In this document: one piece after another, positions 9,230 to 63,734 of the stretch | Numbering within the stretch: position 1 is the stretch's first letter | Layout: each line of letters begins with the position of its first letter | Assembly: GCA_030704615.1 (NCBI GenBank) | Contig: CM060733.1 | Span: forward strand, 54,560,001 to 54,624,000 | From: Takakia lepidozioides | Lineage: Eukaryota > Plantae > Bryophyta | Direction of reading: 5' to 3' | Length of the DNA stretch: 64,000 nt | Program-made: the position numbers and the translations under genes | The notes under the pieces: generated by a model | Database searches by the model: none | Seen by the model: the letters and a program-made list of their open reading frames with translations, nothing else | Told to the model about the DNA's origin: nothing

Positions 9230-10625
9230 GTGGGGCTGTGACAGGCTGTGGCAAGCTGTGACAGGCTGTGATGGGCTGTGACAGGCTGTGCCCTGTGCCC
9301 TGTGGGGCTGTGACGGGCTGTGTCAGGCTGTGACAGGCTGTGCCCAGTGGCCTTTTGGGGCTGTGACGGGCTGTGCCCTGAGGCCTGTGGGGCTGTGACG
9401 GGTTGTGTCAGGCTGTGACAGGCTGTGCCCAGTGGCCTTTTGGGGCTGTGACGGGCTGTGACAGGCTGTGCCCATGGCCTTTGGGGCTGTGATGGGCTGT
9501 GAGGGGCTGTGACAGGCCGTGCCTGAGGCCTTTGAGGCTGTGATGGGCTGTGATGGGCTGTGACAGGTTGTGACAGGCTGTGCCCTGTGCCCTGTGGGGC
9601 TGTGACGGGCTGTGTCAGGCTGTGACAGGCTGTGCCCAGTGGCCTTTGGGGCTGTGACGGGCTGTGCGGGGCTGTGACAGGCTGTGCCCTGAGGCCTGTG
9701 GGGCTGTGACGGGCTGTGACAGGCTGTGCCCATGGCCTTTGGGGCTGTGACAGGCCGTGCCTGAGGCCTTCGGGGCTGTGATGGGCTGTGACAGGCCGTG
9801 CCTGAGGCCTTTGAGGCTGTGACGGGCTGTGAGGGGCTGTGACAGGCCGTGCCCAAGGCCTTTGGGGCTGTGACGGGCTGTGAGGGGCTGTGACAGGCCG
9901 TGCCCATGGCCTTTGGGGCTGTGACGGGCTGTGAGGGGCTGTGACAGGCCGTGCCTGAGGCCTTTGAGGCTGTGACGGGCTGTGAGGGGCTGTGACAGTC
10001 CGTGCCTGAGGCCTTTGAGGCTGTGACGGGCTGTGACGGGCTGTGACAGGCCGTGCCCATGGCCTTTGGGGCTGTGACGGGCTGTGAGGGGCTGTGACAG
10101 GCCGCGCCTGAGGCCTTTGGGGCTGTGACGGGCTGTGAGGGGCTGTGACAGGCCGTGCCTGAGGCCTTTGGGGCTGTGATGGGCTGTGACAGGCCGTGCC
10201 TGAGGCCTTTGAGGCTGTGACGGGCTGTGAGGGGCTGTGACAGGCCGTGCCCATGGCCTTTGGGGCTGTGACGGGCTGTGAGGGGCTGTGACAGGCCGCG
10301 CCTGAGGCCTTTGGGGCTGTGACGGGCTGTGACAGGCCGTGCCTGAGGCCTTTGGGGCTGTGATGGGCTGTGACAGGCCGTGCGTGAGGCCTTTGAGGCT
10401 GTGACGGGCTGTGAGGGGCTGTGACAGGCCGTGCCCATGGCCTTTGGGGCTGTGACGGGCTGTGAGGGGCTGTGACAGGCCGTGCCTGAGGCCTTTGGGG
10501 CTGTGACGGGCTGTGAGGGGCTGTGACAGGCTGTGCCTGAGGCCTTTGAGGCTGTGACGAGCTGTGAGGGGCTGTGACAGGCTGTGCCCAGTGGCCTGTG
10601 GGACTGTGACGGCTGTGACCAGTGA
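9230..10625. repeat. Minisatellite of (G/A)GGCTGTGAC 10-mers in ~40-60-bp higher-order units, in the retrotransposon 5' leader
   Basis: About 1.4 kb of GGCTGTGA units interspersed with GCCTGAGGCCTTTG / GCCCATGGCCTTTG linkers. Confidence 0.95.
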
Positions 10626-11166
10626 GCTGTGTGGGCCTGTGCTGGTCTGTGGTGGCCCGTGTTGACCCGTGGATGGCCTGTGCTGACTCGTGGAGGCACT
10701 GGTGGACTAAGGACTGGCATGTGGTCTGGAAGGCCGAATTTTGAAGCTCGTGGAGGGCGGTTTGAGGAGTATCTTCATGATATTCCCATGGTCATGCAAG
10801 TTCAGGTGTAGGCTATGTTAGGAACTTAGTATTCCAAACCATAAGCCGCAACAGGTTCTCTACCCGGTTACCTTGTGGAGATGGGGTTAGGGACATGTTC
10901 ATGACCGGTTGAGTGTCAACACGGAGGTGCCACTAGTTGCTAGGGACAGTGCCGGTTCGAGCACTAGCGATACTAGTGGGTACACAAGACGAGGTGTGCG
11001 GTTTAGGCCACCTTCACCTCCTGTGTCTTCCACGGAAGGTTCTGATTCGGATTGTGAATCAGGAGGGCTCATACCGGCGGTGCAAGTTGTTTCTTTGCCA
11101 TTATTGTGGGACACAATGGAGGAGATGTATGGAGCTACCAAGGGGCCATGAAGGTACTCTGGGGCG

Positions 11167-14100
11167 GTGGGCACCATCGAGTTGGATGATTTTATCCAAG
11201 AGTTTGATAGTTGGTGTGATTTGCAGCAAATGCGCAATCCACAACTATTTACGCCTTTCATGGCATGGAAGGGGCTGTTTCAGCACCTTGAGGGGCCGCC
11301 TATGGATGATTACCATGAGTTCAGGCGGGGGCATGAGGTTGAAATCGAGGAGTGGAGGATGTACTGGTCACCCGACTATGTCTCCATCACTAGGGGCACT
11401 AGAGCCACGAGGGCAGTGGCTACACCTGCCGCTGCACCGACAGCTTCAGCAAGCAGCAGTGGGACTGGTGGTACAGTAGCTACGACGTCCACCCAAGCCA
11501 CTACCGCACCAGCACTAGCACCCGTGCCTGCCTTCAACCCTGTTGTGGAGTTCTTCGAAGAGTTGAGAGGGAACTACCAAGGGGTGAGGACAGAGAAGTT
11601 GCGGAGCTTGCAAGAGTTCCAACGGAAGCCGACCGAGAGCTTGAGGGAGGCTTTCACTCGCATGAGGCGCTTGATAAATGTAACCCAAGGGGTTACGGAA
11701 GCTCAGGCAGTCCAATTCTGGTATGGGATATTGGACAAGGAGCTGAGGAGAAGGGTGCGGGATGCAACTCTCCTACAAGCGGCCCAACCTACCTTAGCAA
11801 ATGTGTTTTTGCTGGCAGAGCGGATAGAGCTCAACATGGTGGAGGAACGAGTGGTCATGGTGGGATTTGCTAAGGAGACACCACGGGGTAGTGGTGGTCC
11901 TAGCCAACCACTACCTCAACGTGCTCAAGGCAACAAGGGGGCTCAGGTGAAGCTCAGGGAAGGGCAGAGAGGACCTCAGATGCAGGGGTCTCTCCCTTCA
12001 TTTGCTGGCCAACAACGGGCGGATGTGGTGTGCTGGACATGTGGAGGACCCCATGTCAAGAAGGATTGTCCAGAGGGAGGCAAAGGGCCGGCACATGCAC
12101 AGCCTGCACAGTTACAGTGTGGGCATTGTGGCAAACACGGGCATGGAGAGGCTCAGTGTTATGGTTTGCATCCTGAGTTGCGCCCAGGCCAGTTCCAAGG
12201 GAACAATGGTGGCCGGGGGCGAGGTGGAGCAGCCCAGAGGGGACGAGGTGGCCAGCCACGAGGCCAAGGGCAAGCTCAACGTGGCCAAGGACGCGGAGGT
12301 CAGGGTGTTGACCAAGGCATGGCCAACCGGCTTCAGCAGCTAGAGCAGAGGCTCGCTGCCATGGCTACAGCTCAGGTGGTACCGGCTCTAAGGCCGGATG
12401 GTCCAGCTCCTGCTCCTGAGGGAGGAGATATGGGAGGCATGGGATTCATGTGTGGAGCAGCACTACCACTAGTGCAGGTGGAGTCTGCTGCAGCCGTGAC
12501 TCGAGGAGCAGCACGAGTTCCTGAGCCACGAGGTGCAGAGGTGGAGTTGGATCCACAGCGTGGGGAGGCAAGCCGTCAGGCTAGGCTTCCTCAGTCATTC
12601 ACATTGGCGGAGACAGTGTCGACGCCATCCATGGCACCTAGTTCTCGCCCGACTGTTACCGAGGCGGAGGTCACTATGCCATTGGGGAGAGCTACACGGG
12701 GAGCACCACTACCTAGTGTTGCCAAGGCTACGGCAGCTAGTGTGCTGCTAGGAGCGGCCACATCAGTGTGCCAGGCTCCATTGTTCTCGGCTACCATGAT
12801 TTTGACGCCGGGGGTAAGACCAGCTGAGGTGTTCAGGCTGGCAGCTACACTCTGTGAGAGTGGGGAGGTTACTTCATCTTCTGCGGAGATAGTGGGAGGT
12901 GTAGTGCCGGAGGGATCCTCGGATTTGAGGGTCAAGACTGCCACGGCGGCGCCATGGCAAGCTGCAGCTGCCAGGTTGATGGAGCTGCCAGCTAGGCCAG
13001 CCATTGAGCGCGCCATGGTGACACCTGGAGTTGTCATGTTAGACAACCAGGATGGCATTTTCTGTTTGAGTGGACCGGCAGGCAAGAGGTACCGGCCACT
13101 GCGAGTCTTGTTGGACTCGGGAGCTCAGCCACTGATGCTGGGCAGAGCTGCTATTGCAGGCTTGGGCCTCACGGAGGCGGATATGGAGCCTTGTCCTTTC
13201 CAGATACAGACGTCTCTCGGAGGATCGGAGCAGGCTCGGGGCATGACACGGCATGAGTTGGCTATCAGACTACGGCCGGATCACCCTACAGATGGCTCAG
13301 TGATGCGAGCCAAGGCCATTGTGACAGACGCAGTCTCATACGATGTCCTGGTTGGTGGGGCAGTGTTGTATCCCATGGGCTTCACCCTGGATTTTTGGGA
13401 GGAGTCAGCTTCCTATAGGCCTGCATGGCAGTCAGGGGAGGGCCGGCGTGTGCAGCTGCCTGTGACGTTCATAGGAGGAGTTGCGGTTGCCCAGCGAGGC
13501 AAGATGCCGACACTAGCAGCATTCACAGCGGCAGTGAGTTGGCCTAGAGAGTTGCTTGAGGGCAATGCTCATTCAGAGGATGTACCACCTCCGGGAGAGC
13601 AGGATGACATGTATGGTATGGCGGAGTTGCCTACCATGGTTGCTCAGACTCCATTGTGGGGCACGAGCAAGGATTTGCAGCGGGATGCTGATCGACGGGT
13701 GCAACAAGCCTGGGTGGAGGCTTTTGTACCGTCAGGAGAGGAGGAGAGTGTGGGGATTGCACCAGGACCACCTCAATTGTCTCCATTGGACACCACACCT
13801 ATTGTGTGGCAGTCTCCGGATGAAGGCATTTGTCTTCTGGACTTGTTTGGCGGGATCAGCACCGGATTGGCTGCTGTGTTACAGGCAGGTGTACGAGTTC
13901 GGCGTTACCTGTATGTGGAGAGGGATGAGACTGCACGACGTGTTTCACTTCGCCATGTTGCTCAGTTGGTGCAGCGGTACCCTGAGTTGTTGTCGGTGTC
14001 TGCAATTCGTGGATATCAGCAGGCCTTGCCAGCAGACATTTCGTTGCTGGGGGCGCAGGATTTGGAGCGGGTTGGCTCCATTGATCTGGTAGTGGCAGGT

Positions 14101-15075
14101 TGGCCCTGCCAAGGGCATTCATCAGCCGGGCATGGCAATGGATTGCGAGACTCGAGGTCGGGTCTGTTTTGGGAGATGGTGCGGGTTTTGCGCCACTTGC
14201 AGCTTCATCAAGCTGTATCTCCAGCATACATCTTGGAGAATGTGCCACTGATGGGCGATTCTCGGGCCAGGGTGATGGCCAGTGTGCATCAAGTCCGGTC
14301 GTGGCTTGGGTCAGCAGTGTTGCTGGATGCAGCTACAGTGGGGTCACGGGCTCATCGTCCACGGCTATGGTGGACTAACATGATGCCACCCGCACTGCTC
14401 AAGCGTGCATTTGATGGGGTGCAGCGGCCAGCACATCTCACAGTGGATAACATTCTGGACACAGGGAGGCAGTCTCAACGTGTGAGACACGATGACCGTT
14501 CGCCTTTGGCAGTGGTCAACAAGGTGGGTCAACCACGAGCAGCATTACCTACACTGCTCAGCTTCCCAGGATCGCATGCTTTCCGGGATAGTGGACCGGG
14601 CCTCCTGTGGGATGCTCAGTTGCAGCAGTTAGTGGAGCCTAATGCTGACGAGCGTGAGCGGGCAATGGGTTTTACCACTGGTACCACGGCGGTGTCGTCT
14701 CTTTCTGAGGCATCACGTCGTCAAGTGTTGGGGCAAGCAATGGATCTCAATTGCTTGACCTGGATTATCAGCTTGGCTCTAGCTGAGCAACGCAGAGTGC
14801 GGAATACACTTCCCTCAATGGTCTCTCTGCCTACCGAGACGGTACAGGCAGTGAGTGGGGGCGAGCATATGAGGACCACGGGGTGCATGCATCCATGGCA
14901 CACGTGGGAGGTGCTCGAGGTTCAGAGGGAGTTGGCAGCCAAGGCGGCTGTGATGGATGAGGGTGGGGATTCTTCTCGAGTTGAGGAGGTCCTCAAGGAT
15001 GAGATGATGGGGCAGGATGATGCCTTGTCATTGACTGAGCAGGTAGGGAGTACTGCTCAAGAGGTTGCAGCATAG
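11167..15075 (+). CDS. Gag - aspartic protease - DNMT3-like cytosine-C5 methyltransferase polyprotein (1302 aa ORF)
   Basis: Retrotransposon gag core; zinc knuckles CWTCGGPHVKKDC (12031) and CGHCGKHGHGEAQC (12118); protease LLDSGA (D at 13114). C5-MTase motifs: I LDLFGGISTG (~13837), IV GWPCQG (14098-14115), VI ILENV (E at 14236), VIII AHRPRLWWTN, IX ERERAMGF, X RRQVLGQAM. An in-frame upstream segment (10909-11148) is separated by a TGA at 11149. Confidence 0.92.
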   Translation: MGTIELDDFIQEFDSWCDLQQMRNPQLFTPFMAWKGLFQHLEGPPMDDYHEFRRGHEVEIEEWRMYWSPDYVSITRGTRATRAVATPAAAPTASASSSGTGGTVATTSTQATTAPALAPVPAFNPVVEFFEELRGNYQGVRTEKLRSLQEFQRKPTESLREAFTRMRRLINVTQGVTEAQAVQFWYGILDKELRRRVRDATLLQAAQPTLANVFLLAERIELNMVEERVVMVGFAKETPRGSGGPSQPLPQRAQGNKGAQVKLREGQRGPQMQGSLPSFAGQQRADVVCWTCGGPHVKKDCPEGGKGPAHAQPAQLQCGHCGKHGHGEAQCYGLHPELRPGQFQGNNGGRGRGGAAQRGRGGQPRGQGQAQRGQGRGGQGVDQGMANRLQQLEQRLAAMATAQVVPALRPDGPAPAPEGGDMGGMGFMCGAALPLVQVESAAAVTRGAARVPEPRGAEVELDPQRGEASRQARLPQSFTLAETVSTPSMAPSSRPTVTEAEVTMPLGRATRGAPLPSVAKATAASVLLGAATSVCQAPLFSATMILTPGVRPAEVFRLAATLCESGEVTSSSAEIVGGVVPEGSSDLRVKTATAAPWQAAAARLMELPARPAIERAMVTPGVVMLDNQDGIFCLSGPAGKRYRPLRVLLDSGAQPLMLGRAAIAGLGLTEADMEPCPFQIQTSLGGSEQARGMTRHELAIRLRPDHPTDGSVMRAKAIVTDAVSYDVLVGGAVLYPMGFTLDFWEESASYRPAWQSGEGRRVQLPVTFIGGVAVAQRGKMPTLAAFTAAVSWPRELLEGNAHSEDVPPPGEQDDMYGMAELPTMVAQTPLWGTSKDLQRDADRRVQQAWVEAFVPSGEEESVGIAPGPPQLSPLDTTPIVWQSPDEGICLLDLFGGISTGLAAVLQAGVRVRRYLYVERDETARRVSLRHVAQLVQRYPELLSVSAIRGYQQALPADISLLGAQDLERVGSIDLVVAGWPCQGHSSAGHGNGLRDSRSGLFWEMVRVLRHLQLHQAVSPAYILENVPLMGDSRARVMASVHQVRSWLGSAVLLDAATVGSRAHRPRLWWTNMMPPALLKRAFDGVQRPAHLTVDNILDTGRQSQRVRHDDRSPLAVVNKVGQPRAALPTLLSFPGSHAFRDSGPGLLWDAQLQQLVEPNADERERAMGFTTGTTAVSSLSEASRRQVLGQAMDLNCLTWIISLALAEQRRVRNTLPSMVSLPTETVQAVSGGEHMRTTGCMHPWHTWEVLEVQRELAAKAAVMDEGGDSSRVEEVLKDEMMGQDDALSLTEQVGSTAQEVAA

Positions 15076-15575
15076 CAACCACGGGACGCGTCCTCTACCT
15101 CTAAGCCCACTGGACTTAAGGTTGTAGTTACGGAGGACAATTGGGAGCCTGACATTGGACCCATTGTCACCGGAGGAGAGAGACGACGTATACGGCGGTT
15201 CCTGAGGGCTTACAGGAATTGCTTCGCCTTCAGTTTGAAGGACTTGGGAGCACTGAAGGGTCAAGAGATCCGTATTGAGTTGGCCACTGACACGCCAATC
15301 TTTCGGAGACCCTATAGATACAGTGACATGGAGAGGTCTTTGATTCAGATGAGGACTCAAGATCTCTCGGAGGCAGGTTTGGTGGAGCTCTCTGGTGGAG
15401 AGTATGCTTCAGCCACAGTGATGCCAGCCAAGAAGGATGTCTATGGCAATTGGACGGAGAGACGTATGTGCGGTGATTACCGGCCTGTAAATCGTCAGAC
15501 CAAGTCCGATAAGTATGCCATGCCAACACCAGAGGAGATCTTTGATGCCATCGGGCATGCTGAGGCCTTTAGCAT
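15076..15575 (+). pseudogene. N-terminal part of Ty3/Gypsy reverse transcriptase, in frame after the TAG at 15073
   Basis: YRNCFAFSLKDLG...RRPYRYS...YASATVMPAKKD...RRMCGDYRPVN...YAMPTPEEIFDAIGHAEAFS, then similarity breaks just before the expected LDL catalytic Asp. Confidence 0.9.
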
Positions 15576-15659
15576 CGGACTTCCTTTATTGTTTAATGTT
15601 TTGTTGTTTATTCACTAGAACTGTGTGTCCCTGTTGTGTGTTGGTCTGACATGATGTTC

Positions 15660-17560
15660 CTCTTGACCAGGAATTTTTGCAAGCCTCACAACTTATATTA
15701 GAAATGCTTAGCGTTAAGGAGGTCATGACCTTGGTCCTTTGCGATGATGATGTTTGGGAGAAGTGGCATGAGGTTTTCAGAAAGTGGGAGAAGGGAAACC
15801 TCTTGGACATTAACGGAAAGAAGCACAAAGGTGTACAATCGCAGCTAACAAAATCTGCAGTCTGCAAACTCCAGGGATTGAATCTCTTTCAAATGAAGAA
15901 GGTTGCGCAGAAGATTTTGGACTTGAAGATCTGCGTTCGTGGTCCTTACAAAGGGAAAAAACCCCAAGATTCTCTGCCTGTCCGATTACATCGATCGAAT
16001 AAAGGACAGGCGATTTATCATCGATGATATTATGGTGGTATTGGGATATGATGCCAGGAGCAAGCAGCATCTAGAGCCGTACACAAAAGCAGAATGGCTC
16101 GAAGTGAAGAAAAGGTACAAGTTCAACAAGTCGAAGTTCGAGACATTCCGATCGAAATTGGGGGCCAAATACATGAAAAGCAAAGTAAACATGAACATGA
16201 AGACCGAGAAAGTGAGTGACGCTTTCATCAAATACATGCTTTCATGCAAGAAAAGGGTTGAAGACATGGAGAAGGAAATGGGCAACCTCAAGGATACATT
16301 CAAGTCACATTACCAGTGCATTGGAGGGAAGCGGAGGTTCACGGATGCCAAAACACAGTTGAAAATTGTGAGAAAGAGGGATTTCGATAACATCGCAATG
16401 GTGTCCGTCAACACAGTCTGTGACAATGACTCAACTGTTTTCATGCAAAGAAATTACAAGAATATTTTCGATGCGTTCTTCGAACAGTAGCTAAGCCTCA
16501 ATGCATTTGTTTTCTTTTCGACGCAGAGGTCTTCTTCCAATCTCGTCTCGTACATAAGGTTTGGCGAGGGGCGGGACAAGTATATTCTGCTTCAGGGGTT
16601 GTATCTTCCTGGAGAGTTCGACAATCCTTACATGAGCCGGCCAAAGTCATTTTCAATGCCACTCATGTGCCTTGATTACGTATTTCCTGCTACAACTGCC
16701 CAGATTGAGAACCACGAGGAGCACCTGCAGGGAGTGCTGATGTTCAACCCCATTAAACTAGTGATTAAGGCTCCAGACATTGAGCTCACGGAACACGAGA
16801 AAGACTGTGCTGCTTATGAACACGAATTGCGGGCAGAGTCGAGCGACTACATTGCATCCTTGTTCTGTGATGAAGGGATGGTGGCTGTCAACGTTTTTGG
16901 AGGCGTAATGTTAACATCGGCTCTCCACGTAAGCATTTGATTTCCATTTCCATTCGATTTCCATTTCCATTTCCATTTCCAAAAGACATCTTTGGAACCT
17001 CGTGCGATCACGCGTTCATCATGTTTACTCAATGGTTGGCATCTTTTGCACGCTAGGAACGTCCATGTCCTCGATATAAATCACAACCTGAAAAAGAAAT
17101 TATGCGCGAATAAGGTTGCCGCTAACTACACACTCCTCCACACGGAGAATGAGGACGGAACCGAGGTTGGTGATGACACATTGGGAGGGCAGGAGACCCA
17201 CAGGCACAATGGCGAAGGAAATGACGATGACGATGACGATGACAGACAAAGAGATCTGGAGACAGAGCAAAACCAGGAAGAAGGTGACGGAAACGAAACG
17301 TTGGAGAAAAATGAAAGACATGAGGGAGGTGAGGAAGGCAAGGGCGACTACCAACACGATGATGCCGTCAACAATTTCTTGGAAGATGAGATAGAAAAAA
17401 TTGAGCAAGGCAGAAATCCACCAGTTGAACAAGCAGGGAGGGTAGTACCAAAAGAAAGCCACCATCCACAGGCCCAGACAAATACCCGTGAAGGAGACAA
17501 TCCCGAGACAATTGTGTTGTCTTCTTCTACTGAAAGAAGTGGGGGGAGACAATGTAAAGG
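15660..17560 (+). pseudogene. Degenerate multi-exon gene of element A: helical region, weak amino-MTase-like motif X/I/II remnant, acidic tail
   Basis: Fragmented ORFs 15677-16490, 16599-16940 and 16992-17564. ELRAESSDYIASLFCDEGMVAVNVFGG...RNVHVLD loosely resembles EKP..LI..FS.EGD.VLDPFGG...GR..IG.E. An element-A palindrome lies at ~17000, in a putative intron. Confidence 0.35.
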
Positions 17561-26432: not shown

Positions 26433-27706
26433 GGATGAATTTCGGCGCCAAAATTCATCCTATGCAAGTGATTTCATACACAAACATATGAATTTCGGCG
26501 CCGAAATTCATCGCTTCCCCAGTCATCATCCGTCATGAGCACACCTGTCAATCGGATATCGGATCCGGAATTAATTCCGGAACTGTGTAGAACGCTGCAC
26601 TGGGGCACATTTCATCCATATTTCGGTGCCGAAATTCATTAACAATATCTCCGTCCGCGAGCAAACGAGCTGAAATCATCCATATTTTGGCGCCGAAATA
26701 CATCTAGCCCGAACAGTAAACCGACACCATGCCCACGCTTTCCTGCCATCAGTGCCCCTCACGGTTGTTGTCCATGCCTGTTGGAAATGCCATGTTTGGA
26801 CTGTTAAATATAATTTCGGTGCCGAAATAATACTTTATTTGCGGCAACCTCATATACGAAAAATGACCACTTAATGGATATGGTCGGTTTCAAATGAAAA
26901 CAACGGCTAAAATGCAATTAATTTTCCCCTAACCTGAGAAAATATCCCCTTACGTCATTGGATAACGACCTTTTGAAAGACCTAAGGGGTTAAATGTGCC
27001 GATTTCTCCATTTAATGCAGAATATTCGTGTTTTCTCTGTCTGAATGGGTTATTTCATACGAATTTCGGAACCTTACATCATCCAGAAGCAAGAAGTAAG
27101 TATCGGGTTTGGATGAATTTCGGCGCCGAAATTTATCCGTCGCATGGAAAATATAATATTGGAGTTACCCTTTGCCGACAGTAGGGATGAATTTCGGCGC
27201 CGAAATTCATCGCTCGCAAGGAAAAAAAATTTGGAGGGAGGACTTCGGATGAATTTCGGCGTCGAAATTCATCGCTCGCAAAGAAAAAAAAATTATTGGA
27301 GGGAGGACTTTGGATGAATTTCGGCGCCGAAATTCATTGGAAGGACAACAAAAGACTTTCGAAAATACAGAAGAAGAATGAATTTCGGCGCCAAAAGTCA
27401 TCTACACTGTCCATTCAGGGTTACTGTCATCCGGATTTCGGCACCGAAATCCGTACACGTGGTGAATCATGACTGTAATGACAAACACATTCATCCGTAT
27501 TTCGGCGCCAAAATTCATCTTTGTGTAGAAAAAATTTCATGAAGAACATGTTCATCCGAATTTCGGCACCGAAATCCATCCGTTGGGTGCTAGCTCAGTT
27601 TCATGAGGTGAACTAATTCCGAATTCTGTCGCCGGAATTCATCCCGTGGCTTCCAAATCTGTTACATGACAGAGATGTTCATCCGGATTTCGGTGCCGAA
27701 ATTCAT
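26433..27706. repeat. Array of ~16 copies of a 24-bp palindrome ATGAATTTCGGCGCCGAAATTCAT with mostly unique spacers
   Basis: Centres at 26446, 26499, 26563 (degenerate), 26627, 26691, 26820, then 27124, 27198, 27260, 27325, 27389, 27442, 27506, 27567, 27630, 27694. Confidence 0.92.
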
Positions 27707-29519: not shown

Positions 29520-30600
29520 CCTTACGAAAGTGCCAGTGAAAAGTTCTCTCCCTGTAATCTTTGCATTGTATCATGACTCAACTTTTGCTGGTAATTTTGG
29601 GGTGAAGAAGACTGTTGCCAGGATTAGAGAGAAGTTCTATTGGAAAGGCATGCGTAAGGATGTTGCCTTGTATATCTCTTTGTGTGTGGGCTGCAATGCC
29701 AAAACCAAGCTTCCTCGTGCTCCGGTGGTGCTAGAGTTACAATCTACTCCCGTAACCTCTGCCTTTGCTAGGATCTCGTAGGACCCTTGAATCTCACATT
29801 GAAGGGCCATAGTTACATAATTGTAGCTATGGATTATCTGACTAAGTGGGTAGAGGTCCAGCCACTGGTGTCTAAGGATAGTGATGGTGTGGCTCAGTTT
29901 TTCTTTGACGACATCATTTTGAGGCACGGATGTCATTTGGAAATCCTTATTGATCAGGGCAAGGAATTCTGTAATATTCTGATGTTGATGATTTGTCACA
30001 ACATAGGCATTCATCAAGCTACCACTCGACCTTATCACCCCCAATACAACGGACTAACGGAGCGTTTCAATCAAACCATGTGTCTCATGTTGGAGAAGTG
30101 TGGAGGTCTTGCCCAGGAATGGGACATGCTTCTTCCCCCTCTCATTTTTGCTTATAGGACTGCTGTGCATGCAAGTACCCGCCGCCCCTTTGAACTTTTC
30201 TATGGTCGCCCATGTATCTCTCCTATTCATCATACTCCCCTCAACCCGGTCATTGTGAAACCAGAAGATTGGGAATTGTTTGCGACTAATCTGCTGGCTC
30301 ATCTTCTCGAATCATAGATGAGGCTAAGTATAATATCTCCAAGGCTCAGCTAGCGCAAGCCAAGTAGTATAATAAGCGAGTTGTTTATTCATCCACGTTT
30401 GTTGCTGGTCAGACAGTCTGTATCAAGGTGCGGCATGGTGCTATAGAGTCCAAGGGTAAGACTCGCATAGAAGGGGCCCCATCTGATAATTTATGAAATG
30501 ACTGCTGGTAACATGGCTAGATTGTTGCCTCAGCATCCTTCAGTCAAGGAGATCCCTGGGGAAGTGCCTATTGCTGACCTATTTGAGACTGCAGTTTGAT
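29520..30600 (+). mobile_element. Ty3/Gypsy integrase fragment (degenerate)
   Basis: Zn-binding YHDSTFAGNFGVKKT...FYWKGMRKDV..Y...CVGC; core IIVAMDYLTKWVEV, IDQGKEF, YHPQYNGLTERFNQT, FAYRTAVHAST. Stops and a frameshift. Confidence 0.9.
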
Positions 30601-32555: not shown

Positions 32556-32709
32556 GACAACCAAGTTGTAGTGGTAATGGGCACATACCACCTTGGAAGT
32601 GGTTGTGGGTTCAATCCACCCTTGGTGTCACAACGGTGTCCACCTTCCGCTAGTCCTTCGGGGTGAAGAGACACCATAATTTACGCTTCCTTCAGGAGGC
32701 GTCAAATAT
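32556..32709 (+). mobile_element. tRNA-derived SINE, copy 1
   Basis: B-box GGTTCAATCC; A-box partly deleted; TSD-like TGCAAAACCGG on both flanks; inverted homologue at 32796-32964. Confidence 0.65.
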
Positions 32710-32782
32710 TATTTATTCTTTTTGCAAAACCGGAACCGGAGGTTCTTTGACTCTAAGATTTTCTTAAAATCGGAACTGAAGG

Positions 32783-32964
32783 ATATATATATATATATTT
32801 GATGCCTCCCGAAGGAACCGTAAATTATGGTGTCTCTTCACCCCGTAGAGTTAATGCCTTCCGCTAAGAAGGTGGATACCTTTGTGACACCAAGGGTGGA
32901 TTGAACCCAGAACCACTTCTGAGGTGGTATGTGCCCATTACCACTGGGCTACAACTTGGTTGTC
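32783..32964 (-). mobile_element. tRNA-derived SINE, copy 2, with (TA)n tail
   Basis: Minus strand GACAACCAAGTTGTAGCCCAGTGG (A box) ... GGTTCAATCC (B box); TSD-like GGAACTG(A/G)AGGATA at ~32772 and ~32967. Confidence 0.7.
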
Positions 32965-35900
32965 TAGGAACTGGAGGATATGAAACCTAAACCTTAAATC
33001 GTAAATCAATTAAATCCTAAATGCTTGTAGGCATACCTAGCTATGACCAGATGTAAAAACTTCATAATCATCCAAATTTTACATTGAAAAAGATGCAAAT
33101 GCCTTCATATCACAATTGATCACATGTAAAAAGTGTTAGTATGATGACAACAATGCTTATTTACAAGGGAATGGGCATATCCACCCTAGAGCCAGGGGGG
33201 GTTAATAGAACGTGAGCACAAACGGCATGAGCACAAGAAAACGTAGGCGTGAGCACAAAAACACGGCAAATAGGGTACACATGTTTTCACGGAAATAGGA
33301 TTCATGCAAATAGGGATCCAAAATAGCAAAAATGTTAGTTGTGTGCCTATGGTATCCTCCAAAAGAATAACACATTAGGGAAAAACAAAGTCCAACACAC
33401 ATAAATACCAGACAATAATTGAACAATTTAATATAATGAGGCAAACAACAAGTTTCGGTAGCGAAATAAATCAAGGTATCGGGTTTCGCCAGCGAAATAA
33501 TGGGTTTTGACAGCGAAGTTTCTAGGTTTTGCTGCGTAGGTCATTATCAATGGTTTCGTGGGCGAAACAAAATGTGTTGTGTTTGGTTTTGCATATAAGA
33601 GACGACGTGAGATTATTTTATTTCGCTCATGAATTGTTATGTGCTTATTGCAGTATGTCGGTACCCATGTTTTCGTGGGCGAAACAGAATGAAATAATTC
33701 TACTTTCGTGTATTACTGATTGCATTGAGCATCACCTGCACTTGACTAAATATGCAATTAAAAAATAAAATGCAACTATTAAGCAACGAAAATCCTTGAT
33801 AGAGACCGCACCCACCTGATATTCCTTATGCCCCAACATCGAGTGGCTTGCTTGAGCACAAATTTCACATTTTAGTTTAGCCATCGCATCTTTTCAAGAA
33901 TATTCTTGGAATTTCCGGTATATCCTCTTCTGCTTATGTGAGCAGGCGCAAAGAGGCGTGAGCCTGCTCACGTGCTACCCAACCTCGAGCCAGGTACCCC
34001 CAATAGCCTGGACTCAGTGCCCCACCCGGAGACATAATGTGTCGGAATTAGCCGTGACTACTAGGACGTGTGTACTTAGGATGTTGAAAAATTATGCATA
34101 GTTTTGGGTTTAGGGGCTGAACCGAATCCATGGTTAGGGTAGATTTTTCAATGAAGAAAATATGGGGAAACGGACAATGGATCATTTCAACTCCATGGAC
34201 AGTGGTTTTGTTATTGAAGCAGACATTGAATGAAAAGCTTGTTTGATTAGGAGGACATTGTTCAATTACTTGCATTCAGCTATGCACACTGAATATGACA
34301 TATGTGGTTTATTTACATTCACTAAACATCTCATTCAACAGAGTCATTTGAGGTGCACTGATCTAGATAGAGTGTTGTTTTTCATGCAGGTGCGGTTGAA
34401 GAAGCTGCTTGAACCAGTTCACTGGGGACTTGGGATGCCGGGTCAGGTTGTGGGCGTGGTCCACATAGTACAATCCGAACCGTTTGGAGAAGCCCTCAAG
34501 CCACTCAAAGTCGTCCAGCAGTGACCATACAAAGTACCCGCGCACATCACATCCATCCCTGCAGAACGGCACCATGAGTTTACAAAGCTTCCCTCCAAAT
34601 ATGCATGCACTACTTCCCTTGGCGTAACAACCATATTCTGGTCTTGGTCAGTGTGGGTGCCACAAAAAGTCACCTCATTACTGTGCTTCTCATAGGAGGT
34701 TATGAATCACAGCTTGTGAAACGTTTATGTGTAGAGCGTCTACACTCTAGGTGGATAAATAAGTCCTGGAACCGTTTACATTGCATAATAGATCAAGAGA
34801 AAAAGAATCTGTTCCTAACAGAGCAAGTCTCTCTTCTGCCTTAATAATTCACTTACAGATCATATTGCCCTCTGTTCTAGCCTCATGCCATACGTGTGTT
34901 GGAGATTAACTGAAGCTCAAACTCGTCACGCTGGCTGTCAGAACTATGGCATACTGAGATTGCCACTCATCTGCCAAGGTCATCTCATAGGTTCAAAGGC
35001 TTCTATGCTACGACATGTGTACAGTAGGCTAAGGAAAATACTTGATCCTTCAGTTGCCTGACAAATTTGGAGAGCAGCTTTTCCACCTTACTCAGTTCAT
35101 CAGAATGAGAGTGGGGCTGCTACGACTGGACCTGATTCAGTCTTTTTCCTCAACAAATAGTCTTAGTTTGTGATGCAAGAGCTGGGAGTTACCTGATGCT
35201 TGCAATCAGATAGGAAAGGTAGTCATGGTAAAACTGTATGCGGACATGATCTTCTAGACATTCTTCCATTGAAGTGCTGCCATCCTCATCCACACCTGAC
35301 AGCACAACATGTATAGTTCAAGGAGAGCCATGGAGAGGGCCAACTCACAGAGAAAGAGGATATGATAAGTGCAATTCTTTCTCTGGGGAGGTTCAGGATG
35401 GGCTCCCACTGTCTCCAGATAGAGACCAGAAGGTGGGAAAATCTGCCAACGTGAAGACTGACTATGCCCTAAAAGGGTCGGTAGAGGGGCTACCATTCTC
35501 AGTGATGTAAATAGGAGGGTTGTTGTAGCGCAGTCTGACATAGTCGAGAACCTTCTGTATGCCCCAGGGTACTACGGACATCCATGAGGATCCAGCCTGC
35601 AAACAGCCCTCAGTCCCCCAATCATTAAACAAGAGTAGCACTCCTGGTAAAGATGTGAGTAGACTGCTCTGCAAAGGTCTTCCTGGAGGAGCAGATTGTT
35701 TGTACCCTTTACTCTTTTTGCAGCATGGAATAAACATCCTCATTAGTTGAATGCCTTGCTATCAGGGGATGTCAAAGCCTTACCGCCTCTCACGCCTGCT
35801 GCTGGTGGGGTCTAATCTGTTATGGAACTGTGATAGCTCTCTCCCAAACTTACAACGTCCCATGTCCGAGTTTGAACTTGACTATGGCTGGTCTTAAATA

Positions 35901-37899
35901 TGGATGTGTTTACGTGGCCATACAAGAGAGAGTGCAAGAGAAAAACCATAACATTTACTCCACTCACAGACTCAGAGGGAGCAAGGAGGGGAGAAAAGGG
36001 AAAAAGAGGAAATCACAAGGTTTGGCCATAGAGAACCCATGAGCATATTGGCAAAGGCAAGGAGGTTGAAAGACGAGGGAACTACTGCCTGTCTGACTGG
36101 GATTTAACCAGACATCTCTTCATATTTGAGATTTATGAGTTCCTAATTCATAGCCAGGAGGCCAGGGCAACCATTTTTAGTGGATCCTCGTTGAAGTCTA
36201 CAATAGAGAGCCCTGTGCAATCCACCCAGCTTGGAAGGGGGTTAAGGCAGTACACTGAGCACTACTAGTGAATTCTTCCAGGATGAACCTTTTAACATCC
36301 TAGTAAAAAGCTGAACTCTTTGAAGGCGCCCTCTGTTCAGAACCGGATGAGTCCTAACCCTATGCTGGGATAATGGGGCCCTATTGCGTGGGTGGTCAAG
36401 ACAAAAGCACCCCTGAATCAATCTTCTTCAGTTTAACAAAGAAGTGTGCAAGTTGGTGGCTTAAAGATGCAAAAAGATTTCAGAGCAAGAGTATTGGGAA
36501 GTACCAAAGGGCCAATTGGAACGCCATTCTTCGATGCTGTCAAGGCCCCATCCCAACACATCATTAGGCCATGTCTCAGCAGGCACTCTCCTACTACATA
36601 TGATAGGATTGCATCAGAGCAGTACAATGATCTCCAAACAGTATATCCAAAGTCATCAACGACCAACAAACTGTCTTGAAATGCTTAGTCTTCACATAAA
36701 ATGGAATATGAAATCATGGTTCAACAACATTTCTTTCGTCCAACAATGTACTGGCTCAAGGTGAGAAATCTACAAGCGTGCAACGGATTCAGATATGAGA
36801 TAGACGAAGGAAAAAACAAGAATGACCATCCTAGGCCAGAAATGAAATGATAAGAAATACAATTAAACATAATAATGTGCATAAGACATGAAACGTTATG
36901 CGGCCACAGAGGGGGGAACGAGAGAGAGAGAGAGGCCATACAAGATAGTATGGCCTGCGTGTCCATGTATTCGTCCACAATGGTAGAGAAGCTGGACGAG
37001 TTTGGTTGATTTGATACCTAATGAGTGGTGTAGTGATTGATACCAATAAAATCCACAGACCCTTTTATAGCATGTGATTCGCTCTCTGAGAGAATAGGAA
37101 GGCGGTCCCCAAGGAGAACTTGCATGGCTGCAGGATATTTTCCAAAATAAATTGGGTCCAAAAACCTGCAAGCTTCCCAAGTACCTTCCAGTGAGAGAAG
37201 TATTTCACAGTTCTTTTCCTATTATTGTCTCCTCCCCCTATATCCATCCCCTTCCACTCCAGCCTAACTGAGTGCGTGGGGGTGGCACTTCATGTGATAC
37301 TCACCATTGCAATCCAAATGCTCGTACTCGCTCAGCAGCATCAATGTTCTCCACAGAGTCAGACATGGGTTCATATCACTGCATGTCCATGATGATGCCA
37401 ATAGAGCCCTTTTGCTGTGCCTGCCTTCCACAACAAAAGCACTATTAAATTGAAACACGCACATATTGGCAAAGAACCAGCTGATACAATCGCATTGATA
37501 CCGATGGAGCAGTGACCAGCTTTGAGCTCAATCAAGAGAATATTCCTCAGCGAGTAAGTGGCTCAGTAAAATGCTGGAGCTCTTTTGCTGTATAGTGACC
37601 CATGGGCTGGGTACCATTTAATCTTTTACAGTGCATTGTACTTACCATGATGTGCGCTTGACTACCTTTGTGCCTGTCTCCCACCCCCAACAGATGTCCA
37701 CTCTTTTGCTCACAGGCTATGAGTGTCCAAAGATAGACAGTTGTCTATCAGACCCTATATACTTTGTGGATTAAATCAGAGGCCTGCAAAACCCTCCACA
37801 AGCACCGGGGAGTGTAACCTGACGTTCTCTGAAGCCATTTTATGGGGAAAGAGATTTTAGATGAGGAAATTTTTATAGTATCCACAGGGAACACAGACA

Positions 37900-38950
37900 G
37901 AGAAATGAAATGAAATGAAATGGTGCTTTATAACGTCCACGGAAAGCTCATAGAGCTTATGGGACAAAATGGAAGAAAACATGAGAGAGGAACAAATCCA
38001 GAAACCAAGAATAACAATTAATGTTCTAGCGATTGTCTAAGGGTGAAGGCCTCGTGCAGGTGCCTGCCAATCATTTTTGATCCTCATAGTGGAAGACATC
38101 AGTGAGAGTTTAGGTTCCACTGAATAAACAGTGGAATCTCCCACAGATCTCGTAGTATAGAGGGCAGTAGAAGAAGTGTTCTTCAGTTTCAATTTCCTGG
38201 CTGCGCCCTATGCAAGCTGGACATAGGCGGTCCTCCCGTTGCAGGTTTTCCCATCTGCCAGTCTCTATCCGTAGGTTGTGGGAACCCACCCTGAACCGCC
38301 CCAATGCCCTCAGGAGGGAAGGAGATTCTGGGACAGCCAATCTTTGGCTGAGGTCTTCCATTTTATGAGGACCAGAAATGCTTGGGAGCATGTCTGCACA
38401 AGGCTTTCCATCTTAGAGAATCTCTGGACAAATAGTTGCTTTTGGGCTGCTTGTTGAGGGCCGCACTTTCTTTTTCCGTGTCCTTCTTTTGTCCCATCAG
38501 CTCTTTGAGAGTTCCTTGGACATTGCTTCCCTACTGCCCCAAAATACGGAGTTTGGAATTTTCTTCCAAACACGGCCACAACAAATGCATCAAGCAGGGG
38601 CTGATGGAACTTTGTGTTAGGCGGAGCTGGAAAGCAGTTTATCTTACAACAAAACTACAGTTCTATCGGGAGACATTCTTGGTCCTCCACAGCCCCATTA
38701 TTTGTCTGTGATTCTATCTCCATCTCTTCTAAGGGCATTAGGGAGGTTTCTAGTGTGTTGTCACACTGTCTGCAGATAGAGACTGGTAGGTGGGACAACC
38801 TGGATCTTTCTTTTTACAGGTGTAACCAGTTTTGTTCTTCCCCGGTCTTCCTGCAACGCCATCTCAAAATTTTAGGCAAGCTCTGCAAAGACTATGAGAT
38901 GCAAGTCAATCTTAGCAAGACCAAGATCATGGTCTTCAATGGCCAGGCTG
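37900..38950 (-). mobile_element. LINE 3' fragments in a GH1 intron: C-terminal Cys/His domain, 3' UTR and (TTTCA)n tail, plus an inverted RT-thumb piece
   Basis: RFRVGSHNLRIETGRW...RLCPAC...ETEEHFFYCPLY (38110-38391, minus); VNLSKTKIMVFNG on plus near 38900; (GAAAT)n at ~37901-37921. Confidence 0.75.
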
Positions 38951-39767: not shown

Positions 39768-41745
39768 TTAACCCACATACACACTGGCTGTTGGTTTTTC
39801 CGTGCTGAAGGGAACCCATTTGCCCAAACGATTATATCAAGTGCTGGATACATCAAATGCCACCCAATGACGAAATGCCTTGTCAGATTTCTGCTATAGT
39901 TAGCAAGCATCATCAAGACAGGCTTTTCAACTCAGTTCACCACTCGGCTTTGTGTACGGGTACATTACCTATATTTATGGGTTGAATTGTGTGTTGAAAT
40001 CTACCCTGGCAAGGAAATGTGCCTACCGTGAGTAAGGAGGCCATCAATCAGACGGTTGTAGTAGGCCACACCTTCCTCATTAACTGCTGGACCTCTCCCA
40101 TCTGCATTAAGAAAATACATAATTGATTGTGATTCAACTAGAAAGTTTGAGGTTAATCTTGTTGCTTCACTCTTACTTCAACAGCACGAAAGGTATGACT
40201 CGGATAGATACCACGAGGAGAAGAAGACAAAGTGGGGATCCTTCAGCGACATTGAGCTAATAACCTCAAAAACTGTATAAGGTACTGATGTTGACATCAG
40301 TATGGCAAACACAAACAATTGTGACTTTGACCTTTTCCTTATCTCTGGAAGCACTTGTGGATGATAATAACTCTACCTGGGAATATGCGGGTCCAAGCGA
40401 TGGAGAAGCGATAGGCGTCCACACCCAGGTCCACCAGAAGTCCTATGTCCTCCTAAGTTCCCAGAACCCGATAATCCTCATCATTTGAGATTCAACTTAG
40501 ATTCACTGGCCAGTTTTCTTCCCAGAGCGATCACCTTGCATTTTAACCTTAGAATGACTAAAGCTACACAATCTCACATACTGCCAGATGAGTTTCAAAT
40601 GAGAGGGAGACTTCAAGAAGTATTGGGAGTACTTCACCCATGAAGGGTTTTTCATTTTAGTTTGTCGTCCACCAAGTGATGCCTAGTAGAGGCAAAGCTC
40701 CCGAATGCAACCTATGTTCCTTTGGTACATATCTTCGTTTTATAATGTAGCCTGGCTGTCCGAGATATGGATTGCCAATGCTGTTGCACCGAAGTGGATG
40801 GTGTAGAAACATCCTCTAAAACGTCAATTCTCTTGCACGTCTTGCACGTTATATGTTCATCTTCACTCTGAGGAACCAATGAGTAGACCCTTCTTCACTA
40901 TCCAGGGGTCGAGATGAAGGAGTCCCAGGGCATGTTTTCCACTTGGTCTTGCCTCTGCAAGCTTGAAGAAGAAGTGCACGCACTTCTACCCCCGCATACA
41001 TGTGTTCCATAATGCAATACCTGTACTGGGTCTGGGAACTCTTAAAAACCGAGAATCTCTAATATATATTCGAAGGAGATGCTTTTGATGGTGAAAGACT
41101 TCATCTGCAAATAGGTAGTTCGAACCTGATATCGGTGGTATTGATCAACGGCGACATCACCCGTGCTGTTGTCGTCGATTCTCCCTATAGACCCACCACC
41201 CATCTTCCTCTCAATCTGCTACAAAAGGGTTTCGGGAACGATCAGCAGCTCCAGGCTCGAGTGACCAGGAATTTCAATGTGAGTTCCTAGGATTCACTAC
41301 ATACAAGCAGGAGTCTTTAAAGCACTTGGTTGAAACAAGCTGGGAATCGAACCTGGAGTGTGAGTTTCAGTGTCCCAAACACTTGGTCCTCGGCCGCCAT
41401 CGTTCACACCACCTTCATACTGAAAGCAGAAGGATAGAAAGAGACACTGTGAGTCCCGGTTCAATTGGAACTTCTAGAACGATTGCCACTCCACAGTGAT
41501 GGACTGGGTCAGTAGTGAATGTTCATGGCCCCAGAGCTTTACAGTGAGTACTGTAAGGTGCCCTCCTTTGCTTCCTATCTTCATGAGCCATGTGACTTCT
41601 ATTGCCCGAATCATATAGTATATAACCCGAGGTGACGAGTCCTCGACATTCACTTGCAACCCATTCAGAGAAATCCAACCTCGAAAACCGCTGAATTGAA
41701 GTCTCTCGAATACAAAATTCCAGTTGTGTGAGTGTGTTTGTGTGT

Positions 41746-41753
<8 letters not shown>

Positions 41754-41795
<42 letters not shown>
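41754..41795. repeat. (GA)n microsatellite in GH1 intron 1
   Basis: Uninterrupted GA run. Confidence 0.95.
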
Positions 41796-41797
<2 letters not shown>

Positions 41798-42339
41798 ACC
41801 TGGTAGGCAGAAGAGGAAGCGCCGAACACAAATCCAGCGGGAAAGTCATTCCTGCCAAGCACGTTAGATCCCCCAACAGCCTGTGGTGTATCTGTTATTA
41901 ACATTTCTGAACCAATCCCCCCTTCATTGAGCCAGGGACGCGCCCCGGCCCAAGGGATCATTAGCATCACCATCACCATCACCATTGTAACTCTAACAGC
42001 TGACATGTCCATCTTTCTCAAACACAAGTCTGCAGCTGAGACAGATCTGTGCATGATTGCTTTCATTCTGTGCTTTCCTCCCCACTCCTCCCTCCCTGTG
42101 ACTGCAGTGACTGCGCTCCACCCACAATTGGGCTACGACTGTATGGCCTTCAATTGATCGCACATCTCAGTTCACATGCGATAATTCGATAAAATCCTGG
42201 ATATAACCAGTGTTGGACCCGTATATATGTCCAACCCGGGTATCAATACCGATACCAACCGGTGTAGGTAATACCAAGGTAGGTAGGGTGGCCAATACCA
42301 TATTAGGGGCAATACATACCTCACTCCATACTATGGTAT

Positions 42340-43685
42340 GTACCAGTGTTGTACTAGTCGGCGGGGGTATGTACAAAGGTATAGGTAAGGGTATGCCACA
42401 ACCCAACCTATACGGGGGGTGTGTGTAGAACTTAGGGTTTAGGGTTCCAAACATACCCAACTGATACCATACCAGAGTAGCTGGCGGAGCAACACTGCGA
42501 TTGCGAACCGTACTCAAGTGGGAGTGTTTCGAGAGTCATGGGAGGGGTAGCACTTATGGCATAAATTGGTCAGCGTACAAGGTACAATGTGTAGGATTTC
42601 TTCAGTTTTTGTCATGGCATCCAGCTTTTTTCCCATTTTTACAATCCAGCCTTACAATACAAAGACCTTCACTAGTTTATGAGCAGTACAAATTAGTTTG
42701 CATGGGTATGTGTGATTGCAATTGTTTTTTTACCTTTTGTATGTTGCCCTCAATGGGCCCAACAGGTAGCCTGGCCCAGTGTAGGTTAGGATCAGTGTTT
42801 TATTTTTCATATTTCCAAAATCGCTGCCAGGGCCACATGTGGATTCCACCCATTGCCCATGTGGCGAGAATATCGAGGTGACAAAGTTAGAAAAGTGGCT
42901 ATATTCCAGGTTTCACGTTTTCATTGGTCCATGTCGGCAAGATTAGGCTCCTGAATTTATCTCCCAGTGCTTTTTGGCGAAAATCTCGGACTTTACCCCC
43001 CATGATTCCTTTATACAAGTAGCTGACCGAATTTCCAAGTCGAATTTTTGCCAGAAAGAAACACACTGGTTAGGATTGGCCTGGATAGGTTATAAGAGGG
43101 GTATGGGTATTTCCAATTTTGAGATACCCAGGTCCTGGGCATGGGTATGGCAAAAACTCAAATGACATATTGGGGCAGCATATGGTATACTCAACAGTCA
43201 TCATACTGTAATCAAAGCTGAAAAAAACCAGATTGAGGGCAACAAAAAGGTAAAAAAGAAATTGCAATCACACATACCCATGCAAACTAACTTCCTAGCT
43301 CATATAAATTAGTGAAGGTCTTTGTATTGTAAGGCTGGATTGTAACAAATTGGAGAAAAGCTGGATGCCATGACAGAAACTGAAGAAATCCTACACATTG
43401 TACTTTGTATGCCATACCTTGTACGCTGACCAATTTATGCCATAAGTACTACCCTTCCCATCTGGAAACACTCCCGCCCCAGTTCGCATTCGCAGTATTG
43501 CTCCGCTAGCTACTGTGACTGGTATGGTGTTAGTTGGGTATGTTTGGAACCCTAAACCCTAAGTTCTACACACCCCCCGGGTCTAGGTTGCATCACATAC
43601 CAGCCGGGTTGGTTGTGGCATACCCTTACCTATACCCTTGTACATACCCCCACCGAGTGGCACATACCAGTACAACACTGGTTTA
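42340..43685. mobile_element. Foldback / long-TIR non-autonomous element
   Basis: ~420-bp inverted arms (~42340-42755 and ~43230-43685), e.g. GGTATAGGTAAGGGTATGCCACAACC vs GGTTGTGGCATACCCTTACCTATACC, around a ~470-bp spacer. Confidence 0.75.
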
Positions 43686-60186: not shown

Positions 60187-61015
60187 TTAAGCTGACGTGT
60201 GAAAATTTGGCTCAAAGATAAATGCCAGTGGATTTAAACTGCCAACTCTTTTGCCTTGTCGATCGGGAGTTGTTGGTGGAGGTATGTTCGTACGAGAGAC
60301 ACTGTCCTTGTCCTGAAAGTCGTAGATGACCATGGTGTGTTCGACTGCATTGAAAATACATAGTTGATGATCCCCAAGTGCATTACATGTGGACTCTGGG
60401 TATTCCACAAGACCTCTGCATCGCCTTCTTCGCTCGTCCACTAACATTCTCCATGAGCGCCCATTTAACTCACGTTTGCAAATGCAAGTATACATATCTA
60501 TGCCATAAAACTCTAGCCCCAAGAAAAGGTACATTGCCCCCCCACCTGTGTAGTCGCGTAGTAGGCATCACGAATTAGCCTCAAGCTTGGGATGGTACAC
60601 CAGGCATGTTGTGACCAGATTCCTTTTTCTACATCGTATGCTAATACACCCTTACCCATGTCTGTTATCGCAAGGCAATACAGCACCCCATTGCAATATG
60701 CACCATTTTGATACTCGTTAAGTCCAAAATCTGGAGGAGGCAACACCCCCGTTTCCGTCCATTCCGATGTTTTAGAATCGTAAGCCTCTGTTCTCCTAGA
60801 AAGGTGCTCAGTTCCGGTTGTTGCACTCCCAGCCACAATGATCTTGTAACTGTTCGTGGACTTATCCGCCAGCACATGCATCAGAACAGGATGTCGTCGG
60901 TGGTTTAAGGGCGGCAGCCCTTTCCAGCATTGTCTTACGGGATTGCATACGAATAGCTTGTCCGTTTCAGGGAAATTTGCCACATCCACACACAGCAATC
61001 CCCCGCCTCCTGCGA
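60187..61015 (-). pseudogene. F-box/kelch-type beta-propeller gene fragment (F-box not seen; frameshift ~60540)
   Basis: GGGLLCV...LFVCNPVRQCWKGLPPL...YKIIVAG...TEAYDSKTSEW...GAYCNGVLYC...VLAYDVEKGIW...FIFEPNF; the two frames overlap at ~60513-60540. Confidence 0.8.
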
Positions 61016-61887: not shown

Positions 61888-63322
<1,435 letters not shown>

Positions 63323-63734
63323 GCAAACAGCCCTCAGTCCCCCAATTGTTAAACAAGAGTAGCACTCCAGCTGAAGATGTGAGTAGACTGCTCTGCAAAG
63401 GTCTTCCTGGAGGAGCAGATTGTTTGTACCCTTTCCTCTTTTTGCAGCATGGAATAAACATCCTCACTAGTTGAATGCCTTGCTATCAGGGGATGTCAAA
63501 ACCTTAGAGCCTGTCACGCCTGCTGGTGGTGGGGTCTCAATCTAGTATGGAACTGTGATAGCTCTCTCATTTCAAGCTCGACTAACATGACATTGGGCTT
63601 AGCAAAAATATTACTAATGCTGGAAGAGGGCTGATGTGAACACCTTACAACGTCCCATGTCTGAGTTTGAACTTGACTATGGCTGGTCTTAAATATGGAT
63701 GTGTTTATGTGACCATACAAGAGAGAGTGCAAGA

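Follow-up and report, generated by a model that had tools for sequence, protein, structure and literature searches.

A 64,000-nucleotide stretch of the genome of Takakia lepidozioides (Bryophyta; GenBank assembly GCA_030704615.1, contig CM060733.1, positions 54,560,001 to 54,624,000 of the forward strand), called the window below, carries a truncated and broken copy of a multi-copy Gypsy-type retrotransposon with a DNMT3-like cytosine methyltransferase between protease and reverse transcriptase (RT). A TAG codon, absent from the preliminary description of this DNA, separates the methyltransferase from RT, and comparison of the sequences indicates that a stop after the methyltransferase is conserved across related families. 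We consider it reasonably probable that Gag, protease and methyltransferase form a first open reading frame (ORF1) that ends at a leaky UAG, that RT, ribonuclease H (RNase H), integrase and a PHD finger are made by occasional readthrough, and that the methyltransferase marks the new cDNA. Elements of the Gypsy-DNMT3 kind are already known; the conserved leaky-type stop and the land-plant family are the new part.

The window copy has lost both ends and has a stop inside gag (Table 1). The ATG at 11116 lines up with the N termini of Marchantia proteins, and ORF1 is 55% identical to the homologous protein P0002 over 1286 columns. The TGA is codon 12 of gag and, because the Marchantia proteins continue across that place, is likely a lesion of this copy. 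The Pfam Retrotrans_gag match was below threshold (E 0.009). The first zinc knuckle has the form CX2CX3HX4C (12031-12069) and the second is canonical, CX2CX4HX4C (12118-12159); Pfam zf-CCHC matched neither at E 0.1. Asp_protease_2 scored E 2e-4 in the relative L063, compared with 0.064 here, and the RT fragment is 62% identical to residues 22-167 of L063 ORF2. In the four sequencing runs aligned to 10700-15900, depth past 15574 fell from about 1e6 to 1.5e3 in run X1 and from about 130 to 2 in run X8; read or contig depth on the element is no measure of copy number, and X1 and X4 are the same sample, perhaps the one from which the window derives. The window contains neither RNase H nor integrase nor a terminal repeat belonging to the methyltransferase element, and this copy is unable to make RT or integrase. 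The preliminary description had read one frame with gag, two zinc knuckles, a DSG protease and C5 cytosine methyltransferase motifs I, IV, VI, VIII, IX and X in order, as part of a Ty3/Gypsy polyprotein with an intact methyltransferase. Sequence and Pfam comparisons confirmed that order, and the Gypsy type, the intact catalytic motifs and the position between protease and RT all stood. However, the copy does not encode one polyprotein, being interrupted at 11149 and 15073 and cut within RT at 15574.

The methyltransferase motifs begin at 13843 (I), 14098 (IV), 14230 (VI), 14350 (VIII), 14650 (IX) and 14728 (X). Their resemblance to DNMT3, noted earlier from the motifs, was borne out. The PF00145 profile matched the domain at E 1.9e-12, the nearest solved structure by sequence was DNMT3A (E 1.3e-11; DRM and HhaI scored 5e-6 and 4e-4), and the top fold match of the predicted domain model (predicted local distance difference test, 78.7) was DNMT3A (Foldseek E 2e-17). 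The domain has no DUF3444 and no introns. DRM methyltransferases are circularly permuted, with motifs VI-X ahead of I-V, and a DRM identity was ruled out by the canonical motif order. The ratio of nonsynonymous to synonymous substitution (dN/dS) was 0.09-0.19 in 6 of 16 locus pairs, and 7 pairs were saturated at synonymous sites (proportions of differing sites, pN 0.17-0.41 and pS 0.74-0.85), indicating that the domain is under purifying selection between families. RT showed a similar pattern. Of 73 sequences, 71 retain the catalytic Cys, and the motif VI Glu is found in 66 of 74; in a distant group, Glu replaces the motif IV Pro (36 of 73). Counts for motifs VIII and IX are biased, as the loci were retrieved by those motifs; motifs I, IV, VI and X are unbiased.

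The element almost certainly belongs to a multi-copy Gypsy-DNMT3 family that is present in land plants. In run X1, 57,231 contigs align to 10700-15900, two thirds of them less than 99% alike. We found 68 homologous proteins of the domain (718-2288 amino acids), many of them from Marchantia polymorpha (62-77%; Mp_4g09160 and Mp_8g17980 are examples of the loci) and others from Sphagnum fallax and Closterium, and the RT-integrase frame of a relative matches proteins of Calypogeia, Riccia, Closterium and Klebsormidium nitens. Among metagenome loci, 236 were confirmed and 80 kept, 40 being close (at least 47%) and the rest including the distant group. A second family in the same metagenomes (L067-L110, 40 loci) lacks the stop and has Glu for Pro in motif IV. 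A one-off chimera, which the earlier description expected if other copies lacked the domain, does not describe what was found, since the domain recurs in many divergent copies and several plant and algal hosts. Sequence identity supports a relationship to the Klebsormidium element. The domain order of the K. nitens protein P0149 is protease motif, methyltransferase, RT, RNase H, integrase, and its methyltransferase domain is 45% identical to that of the window. At 50% identity, 267 clusters (unnamed) match the domain at E <=1e-30, and by these matches the clade of this methyltransferase extends well beyond the copies in K. nitens. One ORF2 relative, P0344, is listed as an uncultured cyanobacterium protein; binning of a plant repeat with a bacterial genome is the likely cause.

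Trees were built with FastTree on chosen subsets (56 and 46 rows) that left out near-duplicates and partial domains and contained no host DNMT3/DRM rows, with phage-type methyltransferases from viral contigs (29-50% identity over short stretches) as outgroup. One clade of the domain tree (0.94), amid continuous algal forms, holds every stop-bearing locus together with the homologues that end past motif IX without RT; P0149 adjoins it at a support of 0.0-0.38. In 12 of the 68 homologues (P0038, P0041-P0044, P0046, P0047, P0052, P0057, P0058, P0060 and P0061), RT lies ahead of the methyltransferase. Three of these were scanned and carry the methyltransferase between RNase H and integrase, plus a PHD finger. 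The RT-first homologues form their own clade in both trees (0.97 and 1.0) and represent a second position of the same domain, for which no description was found in the literature examined.

No alternative letter reached 5% at 15071-15082 in the three DNA runs X1, X5 and X6, so the stop is the majority state. Among the 31 close loci with RT downstream, 27 carry a TAG or TAA with CAR behind it, 13, 19 or 20 codons upstream of RT; of the other four, one has TAG-TAA, one has a Tyr codon and two are degenerate. Such a stop is missing from all 33 distant-group loci that could be read, several of which are open all the way from motif X to RT. The algal relatives and the second metagenome family are likewise without it. 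The contexts following the stop in six families, the window included, are CAACCA, CAACCC, CAACTA, CAGTTA, CAATTA and CAATCA, five of which fit CAR-YYA; L093, one of this set, ends ahead of RT. The second codon past the stop varies between Pro, Leu and Ser yet stays YY(A), although synonymous sites are near saturation. In the sequences compared, CARYYA follows 52 of 19,071 TAA/TAG triplets (0.27%). L063 is otherwise open, with 1369 codons encoding Gag, protease and methyltransferase, then TAG CAGTTA, and then 1047 codons in the same frame encoding RT, RNase H, integrase and PHD finger. At the protein level, 22 of the 68 homologues, 5 of them named Marchantia proteins, end 100-200 amino acids past motif IX without RT. 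Four Marchantia or Sphagnum gene models (P0005, P0007, P0010 and P0034) bridge the junction between methyltransferase and RT, each skipping a different stretch.

UAG-CAR-YYA is the readthrough consensus of tobacco mosaic virus (TMV), which gives 6-10% readthrough in transgenic Arabidopsis with Tyr inserted, and UAA works too (PMC2754532). By analogy, ribosomes probably read through the stop of the element at a low rate. A stem is predicted that begins 10 nt past the stop and extends to the first codons of RT. Its 5' arm pairs better with the arm at the RT start than with any of 120 other windows in 7 of the 9 loci that carry the stop, whereas none of 14 tests on 7 stop-less loci passed (best, 8/120). 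L063 and L066 differ in the stem by one G-C to A-U pair change, as judged by eye. Extended stems 8-9 nt past the stop boost readthrough in alphaviruses, and stems are predicted next to CAA-UUA in benyviruses (PMC3159437).

The preliminary description had called for full-length copies with paired long terminal repeats (LTRs). The relatives do not carry two ordinary LTRs; they carry split repeats. Among 31 loci longer than 9 kb, an A-coding-B-A-B arrangement is present in L057, L069, L075 and L081, most of the others being short on one side or decayed. L057, L069 and L075 have TG..CA termini and 4-bp target duplications (CATA, GGTC and CCAA, respectively). In these three loci (L057 3330-12539, L069 3133-12447 and L075 2770-12439), the sequence at the inner B|A junction is CA-NN-TG, resembling the two ends of the element joined to each other. 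B begins directly after a G tract, and a G-rich tract lies ahead of B1. Such a junction would fit a route in which a circle with two repeats is opened within the repeat and then integrated. A DIRS-type element was rejected, as L063 ORF2 has rve and Integrase_H2C2 and neither of its two ORFs matched a tyrosine recombinase. Troyka elements, which are animal elements, have CG..CG ends and 3-bp duplications, not the TG..CA ends and 4-bp duplications of these relatives. A chromovirus was rejected because a PHD finger, not a chromodomain, follows the integrase in L063.

From the domain order, the intact motifs, the stop with its CAR-YYA context, the in-frame ORF2 and the purifying selection, we infer the following course. 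Low-rate readthrough, for which the Arabidopsis figure serves as an analogy and which the predicted stem may aid, would set a low ratio of RT and integrase to Gag. Because both protease and methyltransferase lie upstream of the stop, each Gag subunit would bring one of each into the particle. Closing ORF1 at a conserved stop, the methyltransferase is therefore expected at the level of Gag, not of Pol, in surplus over RT and integrase. The protease would then free the domains, including the methyltransferase, which would mark the new cDNA, most likely at CG, ahead of insertion by the integrase, so that the copy arrives premarked. We lean, if not strongly, toward an active enzyme that acts on the element's own cDNA. 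Among retroelement enzymes, the dinoflagellate SymbioDIRS-Dnmt3 domains methylate CG in yeast, and possible gains of such a mark are passing as host DNA, protection and self-restraint (PMC5890265). A more detailed picture can be offered only tentatively, in which a land-plant lineage of these elements acquired a stop of the leaky viral type downstream of its captured DNMT3, the particle is a methylation chamber with stoichiometric DNMT3, and premethylated cDNA is inserted by the DDE integrase from a circle opened within the repeat, aimed by the PHD finger.

Several results weigh against this reading. Of the 27 stop-bearing loci, 23 are one family, some of them the same contig twice, and the independent families are therefore six; that large family reads CAACCC, off CAR-YYA at the final base. 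The RT-tree clade of stop-bearing elements (1.0) also holds P0114, in which methyltransferase and RT are continuous, and P0106, which has no stop across about 60 codons ahead of RT; the stop was thus lost there or the clade is not clean. Fold z-scores of the stem across loci are only -0.6 to -2.7 (window, -1.97), L064 fails the arm-pairing test (30/120), L050 scored 4/120, and a synonymous-recoding control gave at most 25/500 (5%) in only 5 of 9 loci. Because of this control, and because the arms were picked after the folds were seen, the stem is a moderate lead. Three close locus pairs of the 16 have dN/dS of 0.30-0.83, a pattern expected of decay after insertion. CG in the element is not more depleted than in the flanks (0.53 versus 0.58-0.59) and so gives no sign of self-methylation there.

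Readthrough could be real and the abundant ORF1 methyltransferase could nonetheless act in trans on chromosomes, whether on the parent copy, rival transposons or host genes. A stop past the methyltransferase does decouple its amount from that of RT and integrase, and spillover onto the host methylome has been discussed (PMC5890265). However, every full ORF1 found has the methyltransferase joined to Gag and protease, and K. nitens retains an ordinary plant-like methylome (PMC5890265), making action in trans unlikely in our view. Somewhat less likely still is that the stop is the true end of ORF1 and that ORF2 is made by reinitiation at an AUG or GUG shortly past the stop, or by translation of a spliced or shortened RNA. 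An ATG is present at codon 3 in the L031 family or at codon 5 in L064 and L093, L040 also has one at codon 3 or 5, GTG occupies that place in L050, L063 and L066, and the four gene models named above join methyltransferase to RT. Yet the first in-frame ATG is at codon 85 in the window family, 48 in L050 and 117 in L063, and no window variant at 5% or more creates one. Each of the four models leaves out a different stretch, as would be expected of gene prediction around a stop, and neither reinitiation nor splicing requires a shared frame or CAR-YYA.

We regard as improbable that the domain is retained for DNA or S-adenosylmethionine binding or for particle structure, with no methylation. The K. 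nitens domain gave no methylation in yeast, a result that also counts against an active enzyme and that its authors call inconclusive (PMC5890265), and the distant group has Glu in place of the motif IV Pro. Against such a role, catalytic Cys and Glu are kept across families at saturated synonymous distance, and the related dinoflagellate domains are active on CG. The window copy is broken elsewhere, in gag and at both ends, as would suit a one-off chimera, a misassembly or a premature stop born of decay. Such an origin has a negligible chance and is refuted by the recurrence of domain and stop in the host runs and in other families, including the otherwise open L063.

The closest known system is KnitGypsy-Dnmt3 of K. 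nitens (PMC5890265), which shares the unpermuted DNMT3-like domain between protease and RT, the Gypsy enzyme order and purifying selection. Its repeats have a DIRS-like layout according to the legend to Fig. 4c of that paper, as in the window relatives. From its domains, we take P0149 to be a copy of this type. The window element differs in belonging to a land plant and in that the domain closes ORF1 at a conserved stop with a readthrough context and is not part of the Pol ORF, P0149 being one continuous gene model. Because the conserved stop splits methyltransferase from RT, the sequences place the window element as a variant of the Gypsy-DNMT3 kind and not as KnitGypsy-Dnmt3 proper. SymbioDIRS-Dnmt3 likewise bears a C5 methyltransferase but is a tyrosine recombinase element (PMC5890265), and EpiLTRs have a DNMT4-related domain with DAM and chromodomain (bioRxiv 10.64898/2026.05.21.726589); in these two reports the methyltransferases are independent captures. 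Host plant DNMT3/DRM enzymes (PMC6453930) share the DNMT3-type catalytic domain, whereas the window domain is without DUF3444, introns or permutation.

With respect to the stop, TMV-type (type I) readthrough (PMC2754532 and PMC3159437) uses the nine-base signal found in the window and four other families, with a polymerase downstream in frame, and alphaviruses and benyviruses have a 3' stem 8-10 nt past the stop (PMC3159437), as predicted here. The present, predicted case differs in concerning a retrotransposon, in which the stop lies past a DNA methyltransferase. As at the gag-pol junctions of murine leukemia virus (MuLV; PMC3159437 and PMC5009743) and, with UGA, of Candida Tca2 (PMC2194720), an in-frame stop would govern how much structural protein is made relative to RT and integrase. 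Their stop follows Gag, however, while that of the window follows Gag, protease and methyltransferase, and the MuLV signal is a pseudoknot rather than CAR-YYA. Some plant groups have GAG-PROT as the first ORF, and the available text on them mentions no methyltransferase or PHD finger (PMC6317226).

We found no description of a land-plant Gypsy-DNMT3 family or of this stop in the literature, most subscription journals and Repbase lying outside the search. Three supplements of PMC5890265 mention neither Marchantia, Sphagnum, stop codons, readthrough nor KnitGypsy, and in the available text PMC12344493 and bioRxiv 10.64898/2026.05.21.726589 give the source of such elements merely as streptophytes. 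The purpose of retrotransposon cytosine methyltransferases has been unresolved since 2018, and the streptophyte enzyme has never been shown to be active. Since the conserved stop would put the enzyme with Gag, in excess of RT and integrase, a job inside the particle is favored. With copies in Marchantia polymorpha, the question can be addressed in a genetic model for which methylome data exist. CAR-YYA-type readthrough also occurs ahead of the envelope-like gene in SIRE1. Among plant retrotransposons, the element is a further candidate for TMV-type readthrough, and its stop is unusually placed, past a protease and an accessory enzyme. The conserved stop would account for the splitting or splicing of these genes in genome annotations.

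Table 1. Features of the methyltransferase-bearing element (window coordinates)
Feature	Position	Strand	Basis or remark
Retrotransposon remnant	10794..15574	+	Alignment breakpoints at both coordinates in 4/4 sequencing runs; depth drops sharply past 15574
ORF1 (Gag, two zinc knuckles, protease, DNMT3-like methyltransferase, linker)	11116..15075	+	Interrupted by TGA 11149-11151
Two CCHC-type zinc knuckles	12031..12159	+	Sequence motif
Aspartic protease active-site motif LLDSGA (DSG)	13108..13125	+	Sequence; Asp_protease_2 E 0.064
DNMT3-like C5 cytosine methyltransferase	13828..14781	+	Canonical order of motifs I-X, with catalytic Cys and Glu
Stop (TAG 15073-15075) with TMV-type readthrough context TAG CAA CCA	15073..15081	+	Sequence; kept in relatives
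Predicted long-range RNA stem, arms about 15086-15102 and 15172-15189	15086..15189	+	Starts 10 nt past stop; fold z -1.97; prediction only
ORF2 start, N-terminal part of RT	15076..15574	+	Same frame as ORF1; cut before YxDD; first in-frame ATG at codon 85

Other features were noted in the window. A GC-rich tandem array with periods of 10, 41, 51 and 102 bp (9231-10619) lies directly upstream of the cut 5' end of the element. An integrase fragment of another Gypsy element, 33% identical to L063 ORF2, is present at 29590-30317 (+ strand). A duplicated segment (34360-38014 and 61885-63926) is 85-97% alike, with the copies about 27.6 kb apart, and long inverted repeats resembling miniature inverted-repeat transposable elements occur at 42350-43664 and 32570-32945. 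At 26433-27601, a palindromic 26-bp core occurs in eight copies at irregular spacing. An exon at 41665-42132 (- strand), with no Pfam match, presumably derives from a family-1 glycosidase, which it resembles by motif. Exons of an F-box/kelch gene (Pfam PF24750) lie at 60513-61034 (- strand); among named longer proteins, this gene is nearest to those of Sphagnum (58-60%) and Ceratodon (47-48%).

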